In this document: piece by piece, positions 24,506-25,725 of the stretch
Position numbering within the stretch: position 1 is the first letter of the stretch
Layout of the letters: the number at the start of each line of letters is the position of its first letter
Assembly: GCF_003334765.1 (NCBI RefSeq)
Contig: NZ_QOWT01000001.1
Source: Escherichia coli
GTDB lineage: Bacteria; Pseudomonadota; Gammaproteobacteria; Enterobacterales; Enterobacteriaceae
DNA: 64,000 nucleotides
Reading direction: 5' to 3' (one strand)
The notes under the pieces: generated by a model
The model's database searches: none
Seen by the model: the letters and a program-made list of their open reading frames with translations, nothing else
Told to the model about the DNA's origin: nothing
Position numbers and translations under genes: made by a program

Positions 24506-24710
24506 GACAGTCTTAGTCTTTAAGTTGAGAAGGATGGGAGAAACTTGCTTTCTGGGCGCACTGCCGGAAAGCGAATCCGGTATTACGAAAGTGGTGGTGC
24601 CTCGCTCTAAGGATAGGTGACATCGAAAAAGCGTGCAGAGGAATGTGTGCTTGTGTCTCAGCCCAACGTGAGTGCCTGTTTTTGAGTCGTTGAGTTCTAC
24701 AGTCCAAAGT

Positions 24711-24726
24711 GCTGAAACCATTCAAG
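24711..24726. promoter_or_regulatory. Possible Cra (FruR)-type operator upstream of pykF
   Basis: GCTGAAACCATTCAAG resembles the Cra consensus GCTGAAACGTTTCAGC on its left half; Cra control of pykF is established, but this site assignment is by eye only. Confidence 0.3.
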
Positions 24727-25061
24727 AGTCAATTGGCGCGCATTATACGCTGAAATTAATCCAAAAGGAAAACAAAAACAGCGTTTCAAAAAATATACAA
24801 CTTGTTAGACAATAAATTGTTATCAAAGATTTAACGTTCCAGGGAAAAGGTTACGCAAAAACTTCACTGTTTGCGCAACGTCTGGTGCCGAAGTTGTCAG
24901 TGTGAGGATAAGTGAAAGTTCATCCGGTGTATAAATATATCATCGCTCAATTGCTACAGTTAAAATAATTTATCGCGTTATTTGTCTGATTTTGTTTGAT
25001 TTTTGTTTAATTGGTTAGATTGATATATGCTGATAGTTGGCATGATAAATAGGTATAAAGA

Positions 25062-25271
25062 ATGGGAAATCGGACAAAAGAGGATGAACTGTACCGAGAA
25101 ATGTGCAGAGTTGTCGGTAAAGTTGTGCTGGAAATGCGCGATCTGGGGCAGGAACCAAAGCATATTGTTATCGCAGGCGTATTACGTACAGCATTAGCCA
25201 ATAAACGCATTCAGCGCAGTGAGCTGGAAAAGCAGGCGATGGAAACCGTCATTAACGCACTGGTAAAATGA
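25062..25271 (+). CDS. fumD: Small protein YdhZ (reported as fumarase D)
   Basis: 69-aa ORF MGNRTKEDELYREMCRVVGKVVLEMRDLGQ… in an AT-rich intergenic context. Confidence 0.7.
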   Translation: MGNRTKEDELYREMCRVVGKVVLEMRDLGQEPKHIVIAGVLRTALANKRIQRSELEKQAMETVINALVK

Positions 25272-25511
25272 CCATTCAGGATGAGGCGGTAAGCTTCATC
25301 CTGATATTCTTGCTTCAGTTGCGGTCCAGTTAATCATTCTAAATAACAACTGCTGAAATTATACGAATTTCGGTATGTATTTTAATTTATAGCGATAATG
25401 TTATTTTTATTTTCTGCAATGAAAGTCACAAATAATTGTCGCTTAAGTTAAATTTATTTCAAATGATAATAAATATCAGTTCACTTATAATTTCTTGCTT
25501 TGTAATTTTAA

Positions 25512-25525
25512 TTGATAACGATCAA
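25512..25525. promoter_or_regulatory. FNR/CRP-family site (TTGAT-N4-ATCAA) upstream of ydhY
   Basis: TTGATAACGATCAA is a perfect match to the FNR consensus, about 200 bp upstream of the ydhY ATG in an AT-rich region. Confidence 0.6.
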
Positions 25526-25725
25526 TGTTAAGGGCTCAGAATAATCACATTATTTTTTCTCCTAACCATAAAGGATTAGTTTATCGGCGTTAATCTTTTC
25601 TCATACACTATCGGGTTAGGGAAAATATCTGGTGTTGGGGACAGAGTCAGCAGCGTATTAGTTGAATGCTTAATATCAGGCTGCTGAATTGTCAGCACTG
25701 TGTTTGCGAAGAGGATGCGAAATAA

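Follow-up and report, generated by a model that had tools for sequence, protein, structure and literature searches.

Translationally coupled upstream open reading frames (ORFs) exist, for example uof-fur in Escherichia coli, and among the operators of Cra (FruR) at glycolytic genes the pykF site is reportedly one of those already known. Two further kinds of described system are relevant here: the class II promoters that are activated by FNR and repressed by NarL or NarP, and the 'promoter islands' of Panyukov and Ozoline (2013, PMC3661553). We compared with these systems the region at positions 24506-25725 of a 64,000-nucleotide stretch of E. coli DNA (contig NZ_QOWT01000001.1 of RefSeq assembly GCF_003334765.1; the whole stretch is called the window below). 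The region comprises the pykF-fumD spacer, the small gene fumD and the fumD-ydhY spacer. We are confident that what these 1.2 kb contain is a set of three ordinary control regions, all characterised before, which lie together in one AT-rich patch coated by H-NS.

In the proposed organisation, pykF would be transcribed leftward from a sigma-70 promoter, with the Cra operator just past the start, followed by a leader of about 229 nucleotides (nt) that carries the ORF ynhH. The distal, AT-rich part of the pykF-fumD spacer would hold a weak fumD promoter reading in the opposite direction. The fumD-ydhY spacer would hold a class II, FNR-activated promoter of ydhYVWXUT, with a Fur box upstream of it and a NarL/NarP-type site just past the start. 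H-NS, together with StpA, would spread over the whole patch and lower the access of FNR. The regulation by Cra, FNR, NarL/NarP, Fur and H-NS has already been published, as has the promoter-island status; the exact start sites of pykF and ydhY and the repression geometry of Cra and NarL/NarP are what we infer. The open ynhH frame in divergent lineages may be a new observation.

The comparison with the described systems gave the following picture. The fumD-ydhY spacer is itself a listed promoter island and shows no difference from that class, whereas the pykF-fumD spacer is not in the list of PMC3661553 and carries only the H-NS mark obtained by genomic SELEX (systematic evolution of ligands by exponential enrichment; Shimada et al. 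2014). With the class II promoters ydhYVWXUT shares the perfect TTGAT-N4-ATCAA at -42.5, the anaerobic induction and an FNR peak, but the NarL/NarP site at ydhY is a guess, with two mismatches to the 7-2-7 arrangement and no TACYYMT heptamer. The pykF operator agrees with the Cra operators of glycolytic genes, being asymmetric, with a perfect left half (GCTGAAAC), and placed just downstream of the promoter as for repression. As in uof-fur, the ORF in the pykF leader ends a few nt from the main start or overlaps it, and the main gene has no Shine-Dalgarno sequence. In contrast to uof-fur, ynhH is much longer (62-71 codons, and 83 in Yersinia) and begins at a TTG without a visible Shine-Dalgarno sequence, and its coupling to pykF is only proposed.

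H-NS coverage of the AT-rich patch

Published genome-wide data were placed on the window by coordinate conversion (U00096.2 position = 1,778,227 minus window position). As a check, the FNR motif at 1,752,702 in Table S6 of Myers et al. (2013) converts to 25525, which is the end of the perfect FNR box at 25512-25525. In the H-NS data of the same study (Table S3), obtained by chromatin immunoprecipitation (ChIP) with microarray detection (ChIP-chip), the bound region runs anaerobically from 1,750,995 to 1,753,982 (window 24245-27232) and aerobically from 1,750,103 to 1,754,293 (window 23934-28124). Each of these regions, 3-4 kb long, takes in fumD with the spacer on either side of it and extends over the start of ydhY-ydhV. 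The IHF table of that study contains no interval at this locus. Table 1 of Panyukov and Ozoline (2013, PMC3661553), whose analysis used PlatProm, lists '1752593_318 ydhY/ydhZ' as a promoter island (window approximately 25317-25634) with code 'A', bound by H-NS in all ChIP studies. Genomic SELEX placed a site for RNA polymerase holoenzyme, and one for H-NS, in the ydhZ/pykF spacer (Shimada et al. 2014). In addition, the FNR ChIP signal at ydhY rose from 0.29 in the wild type to 1.82 in an hns/stpA mutant, an increase of about 6-fold that was flagged as significant (Myers et al. 2013). On a small scale, the locus illustrates clearly that an activator, here FNR at ydhY, has limited access to AT-rich DNA coated by H-NS. 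An earlier note on this DNA (the original prediction) had proposed, from length and composition, that a nucleoid protein, either H-NS or Fis, binds here. For H-NS this is borne out by the ChIP-chip regions over both spacers, the promoter-island listing, the SELEX site and the rise of FNR in the hns/stpA mutant; the comparison with H-NS ChIP data, made by look-up in the published tables, showed enrichment over both spacers. Consensus scans of the region for H-NS, IHF, Fis, CRP and ArcA yielded no matches beyond the number expected from its AT-richness.

The gene map agrees with the original prediction in the position and length of the two spacers, which are 24506-25061 (pykF-fumD, 556 bp) and 25272-25725 (fumD-ydhY, 454 bp). 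The G + C content of the window is 50.1% (300-bp windows: mean 0.501, standard deviation 0.051) and that of the fumD-ydhY spacer 33.0%. The segment 25331-25630, with 26.0%, is the minimum among all 300-bp windows in the 64 kb, approximately 4.7 standard deviations under the mean; it overlaps the promoter island at 25317-25634, which forms the AT-rich core of the spacer. The pykF-fumD spacer (mean 39.2%) splits into two parts by composition. Its distal part, 24740-25061, has a G + C content of 32.3% (third lowest in the window; 24751-25050 has 32.0%), and its pykF-proximal part, 24513-24707, has 48.7%, is not AT-rich and coincides with the annotated ORF ynhH. The wording 'strongly AT-rich' consequently fits the fumD-ydhY spacer and the distal 60% of the pykF-fumD spacer, but not the third nearest to pykF. 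To call all 555 bp upstream of pykF strongly AT-rich intergenic DNA was wrong, because the proximal third has this G + C content of 48.7% and holds ynhH within a transcribed leader, both ynhH and the leader having been overlooked.

A different account of the AT-rich DNA is that it marks the edge of a horizontally acquired fumD-ydhYVWXUT segment beside the core gene pykF, and that H-NS silences this segment. It complements the explanation given above more than it competes with it, and we consider it almost evenly balanced, leaning slightly against it. In PMC3661553 the promoter island carries a flag for overlap with a predicted genomic island and is linked to foreign genes. One genome per species was scanned with the N-terminus of PykF, which gave 80 Enterobacterales loci; among these, ydhY adjoins fumD solely in Escherichia, and fumD lies divergently beside pykF in Escherichia, Kluyvera, Superficieibacter, Pseudocitrobacter and Pluralibacter. 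Moreover, when the window is compared with a distant Escherichia genome, sequence differences increase abruptly at the pykF promoter: pykF differs by 4% and its leader by about 1%, but the DNA from about 24735 to 26100, with the distal spacer, fumD, the second spacer and ydhY, by 14-28%. A comparison with E. albertii gives the same jump, which points to an old island border or recombination breakpoint at that position. In Salmonella, Salmonella pathogenicity island 2 lies at the equivalent position beside pykF. A foreign origin of the ydhY side, which we regard as putative, is countered by the ordinary G + C content of the ydhY-T operon (49.7%) and by the distribution of the region, since the 1.6 kb around fumD was found in 5,426 of 5,426 complete E. 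coli genomes, with identities mostly of 95-100%. Any acquisition must therefore be an ancient one. As to integrases, tRNA genes and flanking repeats, none turned up either, although no search for them was made.

That Fis rather than H-NS is the chief nucleoid protein organising both spacers, the other possibility named in the original prediction, is improbable. The AT-rich sequence would suit Fis, and a degenerate Fis pattern matches palindromically once, at 25717-25731. However, the region holds 2 of the 46 strand-hits in the window within 1.9% of the window length, which is the expectation from length; our literature search found no publication tying Fis to this locus, and promoter islands have no specific association with Fis (Panyukov and Ozoline 2013, PMC3661553).

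Marginally less probable again is that the AT-richness is simply the usual composition of intergenic and promoter DNA, with no special role for a nucleoid protein, and that the length of the spacers reflects divergent or complex promoters. Other spacers in the window are AT-rich as well (G + C content 32.6% between lpp and pykF and 31.3% at 1261-1560), and shuffles of the region contain about as many promoter-like matches (4.4 +/- 1.9) as the region does (5). The A/T tracts pointed out in the original prediction are present, but they are short and scarcely beyond what composition predicts: there are 8 A/T runs of at least 5 bases, the longest of 6, where about 5 are expected by a hand estimate at 62% AT. 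Against this account, the core of the fumD-ydhY spacer is the most extreme 300 bp of the 64 kb, published ChIP and SELEX data put H-NS on both spacers, and FNR binding goes up without H-NS and StpA.

The control regions of pykF, fumD and ydhY

In window coordinates, the sigma-70 peaks obtained by ChIP with sequencing (ChIP-seq; Myers et al. 2013, Table S1) fall at 24747 (strong), 25135 (weak) and 25561. The first of these (1,753,480) lies on the hexamer TATAAT at 24742-24747 (minus strand), the putative -10 element of pykF. In a conservation alignment that covers 29 species in about 20 genera, five positions of this hexamer are invariant and the sixth is nearly so. The conserved TATAAT and the strong peak point to a start near 24734, which would give pykF a 5' leader of about 229 nt (24506-24734, minus strand) with a G + C content of about 49%.

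The original prediction had noted a Cra-like half-palindrome at 24711-24726. We identify it as the Cra operator of pykF (TTGAATGGTTTCAGC, 24711-24725, minus strand), located at approximately +10 to +24 of the promoter, on the basis of the consensus match and its invariance in the 29 species. Positions 24711-24724 (GCTGAAACCATTCA) match the degenerate Cra consensus RSTGAAWCSNTHHW. This consensus has 2 matches in the window where 0.76 are expected, so that the motif match is insignificant by itself. By count, the same positions have 4 mismatches to the ideal 16-bp Cra palindrome, and a scan with the ideal palindrome at no more than 3 mismatches misses them. Unlike the motif match, the invariance of the operator across the aligned species is significant. 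The operator lies 16 nt downstream of TATAAT in E. coli and 15-17 nt downstream across the alignment. It is located just downstream of the putative pykF start and would therefore have the geometry of a repressor site. A passage in PMC9948231 cites pykF as a Cra target. The pykF operator is thus a known site; new are its invariance in the 29 species and the upstream ORF that begins directly after it, at a TTG that does not vary (24707, where the annotation starts ynhH) and is located 3-4 nt from the operator (5 nt in one isolate).

Further upstream, at approximately -47 of the pykF promoter, lies a conserved palindrome, TGAAAC-N3-GTTTTT (24774-24788), which takes the form TGAAAC-N3-GTTTYY in the alignment of 29 species. 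It resembles a KdgR box, a likeness offered as a lead only. According to a passage in PMC6127512, pykF is among the KdgR targets predicted by Rodionov (2004).

For fumD, a promoter TTGTCT-18-TTTAAT was predicted at 24982-25011 on the plus strand (Shimada et al. 2014, Table 1); a fumD start would be expected near 25018. The same study predicted a constitutive promoter directed towards pykF, TTAACT-18-TATATT at 24934-24963 (minus strand), at which there is no separate sigma-70 ChIP peak.

The fumD-ydhY spacer contains the sole perfect FNR box of the window, TTGATAACGATCAA at 25512-25525, which also has an FNR ChIP peak. The ydhY promoter has been published as a class II, FNR-activated promoter with the box at -42.5, and the sigma-70 peak at 25561 (1,752,666) is located exactly 42.5 bp from the centre of this box. 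That peak is stronger anaerobically, rising from 46.9 to 177.4 (Myers et al. 2013, Table S2). Peak and box geometry together place the putative ydhY promoter at 25548-25561 (plus strand), with CATTAT as -10 hexamer and a start near 25561. Both half-sites of the FNR box are retained in divergent strains and the 4-bp spacer between them is variable; FNR binding and FNR-dependent expression of ydhY are found in published data. In vitro, the ydhY promoter is transcribed better by the sigma-S holoenzyme than by that with sigma-70. The folding of the ydhY leader is unremarkable (z = -0.91).

Upstream of the FNR box lies a Fur box, TGATAATAAATATCA (25464-25478), with one mismatch to TGATAATNATTATCA; 0.03 such matches are expected in the window. 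A passage of PMC7157518 cites ChIP-seq data in which Fur has a peak at the ydhY promoter. The only better Fur match in the window is a perfect box, TGATAATCATTATCA at 15748-15762, about 0.4 kb upstream of a large ORF starting at 16146. By its position and the published gene order this is probably the sufA promoter region.

Just past the putative ydhY start, at about +3 to +18, is a 7-2-7-like candidate site for NarL/NarP, TAACCATAAAGGATTA (25563-25578), with two mismatches to the consensus and conserved in E. coli strains. The regulation of ydhY by NarL and NarP reportedly consists of repression by nitrate and nitrite, and a NarL/NarP-like site just after the start would fit such repression. 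Matches to the 7-2-7 arrangement with 2 mismatches are no commoner in the window than by chance, and the strict NarL heptamer TACYYMT has no match in the fumD-ydhY spacer. The FNR, Fur and NarL/NarP sites of this spacer had not been mentioned in the original prediction.

Multiple promoters around fumD had also been proposed. Promoter-like hexamer pairs are indeed about 4-fold denser here than in the surrounding 20 kb, 5 of the 20 hits in 20 kb falling within these 1.2 kb, and the two best hits of the 20 kb are in the AT-rich core of the fumD-ydhY spacer. However, the density does not exceed that of the shuffles mentioned above, none of the hits within the 1.2 kb has experimental support as a promoter, and sigma-70 ChIP-seq gives about one peak per gene. 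The many promoter-like hexamers are mostly a by-product of the AT-richness and not separate working promoters; going by the ChIP data, each gene seems to have a single promoter at work.

Some of the data weigh against the organisation proposed here. The weak sigma-70 peak at 25135 lies inside fumD, away from the predicted fumD promoter. Table S6 of Myers et al. (2013) gives 'None' for a nucleoid protein at the ydhY FNR motif, and Table S3 puts this motif inside an H-NS region; because of this conflict the data set is not fully self-consistent at the motif. In that study ChIP-chip gave many, broad H-NS regions, from which nucleation sites cannot be located. Finally, the start sites of pykF and ydhY and the NarL/NarP site are placed by geometry and second-hand citation.

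The ynhH reading frame in the pykF leader

The ORF ynhH (24513-24707, minus strand; RefSeq 'protein YnhH', UniProt YNHH_ECOLI) has 64 codons, a TTG start and a stop 7 nt before the pykF ATG. We tentatively suggest, from comparative sequence data, that ynhH is an upstream ORF selected for being translated and not for its peptide, and that its translation sets the output of PykF; we regard this as possible and stop short of calling it probable. The frame would run through an unusually unstructured leader and end at, or overlap, the pykF start, which has no Shine-Dalgarno sequence. Translation of ynhH might then raise PykF through termination and reinitiation, or might shield the long leader from Rho or RNases.

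The frame has been kept in Enterobacteriaceae, Yersiniaceae, Erwiniaceae, Pectobacteriaceae and Hafniaceae. In 49 of the 50 species that have both the Cra box and the TTG, the ORF from the TTG reaches to between -15 and +14 nt of the pykF ATG. Its frame relative to pykF varies by lineage, with the stop at -7, -14, -11 or +14, or with an ATGA overlap at +4. Stop codons were counted in 16 representatives of divergent lineages (leader identity below 75%), with the last 24 nt excluded. The ynhH frame contained 3 stops, all of them in Photorhabdus, and the other two frames contained 43 and 48. The ynhH frame is thus without stops in 15 of the 16 lineages (Poisson P ~3e-16), a value that overstates the case because the lineages are not fully independent, although the effect is still large. 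As read from the alignment, the last 25 nt ahead of the pykF ATG are conserved and have stops in all three frames. The position of the ynhH stop follows from the open frame for this reason and adds no evidence of its own. Long ORFs that adjoin the start of pykF were also found in Pantoea, Erwinia, Brenneria, Pectobacterium, Dickeya, Rosenbergiella and most Photorhabdus. No long ORF was present at the pykF start in Proteus, Providencia, Budvicia, Zophobihabitans and one Erwinia metagenome assembly, and the pykF leader of Aeromonas has an ORF of merely 37 codons.

The ynhH peptide is strongly divergent between species except for one motif. Differences fall on codon positions 1, 2 and 3 at 30, 31 and 39% in ynhH, against 12, 4 and 83% in pykF, and the ratio of nonsynonymous to synonymous substitution rates (dN/dS) of ynhH is 0.3-0.8. 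This substitution pattern is weakly protein-like and ambiguous, and no NCBIfam model matches YnhH. In nearly all of the 80 taxa pykF has no Shine-Dalgarno sequence (anti-Shine-Dalgarno duplex mostly 0 to -1.3 kcal/mol). The taxa that have no ORF, Proteus and Providencia among them, lack it too, so this comparison neither supports nor excludes coupling. The centre of the leader contains a largely invariant block of 44 nt, GCACACATTCCTCTGCACGCTTTTTCGATGTCACCTATCCTTAG (24607-24650, minus strand), in the alignment of 29 species. The invariance extends to synonymous positions of ynhH, which argues for a constraint at the level of the nucleic acid.

The same block could speak for the least probable account, that the 200 bp nearest pykF are a structured regulatory RNA (a riboswitch, or a leader targeted by a small RNA) conserved for folding and untranslated, but the leader is a poor folder, equalled or surpassed by 198 of its 200 shuffles (z = +2.11), RNAalifold finds near-zero conserved structure (-5.95 kcal/mol, with a covariation term of -0.5), a search of Rfam gives no family at E <= 1, and folding cannot explain why a single frame is kept free of stops.

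The literature search found no paper describing YnhH or an upstream ORF of pykF, and translational control of pykF by ynhH is, as far as could be found, undescribed. PykF is one of the main points at which glycolytic flux is controlled, and pykF is hit repeatedly in evolution experiments; if the suggestion is true, a translated leader ORF that gates pykF would be a new layer of translational control on a key glycolytic enzyme, and one that can be tested directly. The conserved ynhH frame is a modest lead and the part of this locus most worth following.

Two further observations concern the pykF leader. In E. coli and E. albertii the pykF frame itself is open upstream across the whole leader (24503-24721, minus strand), so that an ORF of 542 amino acids can be read from an ATG at 24721; this is probably incidental, because it is limited to these two species. 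A plasmid of 73.8 kb from a seawater E. coli (NZ_CP142917.1) carries at 6581-7072 a gene for pyruvate kinase with 87% identity to the 5' part of pykF plus part of the leader.

Neighbouring genes and minor features

By RefSeq annotation, ldtE (21478-22482, plus strand), lpp (22546-22782, minus strand) and pykF (23093-24505, minus strand) lie to the left of the region, and ydhY (25726-26352, plus strand), with ydhV next downstream, lies to its right. The gene between the two spacers, fumD (ydhZ; 25062-25271, plus strand), is annotated by RefSeq, encodes 69 amino acids and matches NCBIfam model NF007630 (E = 1.4e-45). It is followed at 25276-25304 (plus strand) by a predicted terminator-like hairpin with a 12-bp stem and a weak T tail.

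An unannotated ORF of 19 codons (MLNIRLLNCQHCVCEEDAK, with three cysteines) occupies 25666-25725 (plus strand), and its TAA comes immediately before the ydhY ATG. Four sequences of the E. coli lineage have this ORF intact, one of them with GTG in place of its ATG, and it may be a chance ORF.

An Rfam search at permissive thresholds over 22400-26400 returned nothing within 24506-25725. Outside the region, two sub-threshold matches were obtained: a GcvB-like match (29.7 bits against a threshold of 42) at 23034-23223 (minus strand), covering the 3' end and terminator of pykF, and an RmaA/STnc-like match at 22463-22544, in the convergent terminator between ldtE and lpp. Both probably arose by chance or reflect generic features of terminators.

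Within E. coli the locus is not free of rearrangement. Among the 5,426 complete genomes, 27 have no match that spans 80% of the 1.6-kb query, and rearrangements other than the following one therefore probably exist. In the pig isolate YSP8-1, a copy of IS1 has inserted in the fumD-ydhY spacer, at 1689-2386 of the locus extracted from that genome.

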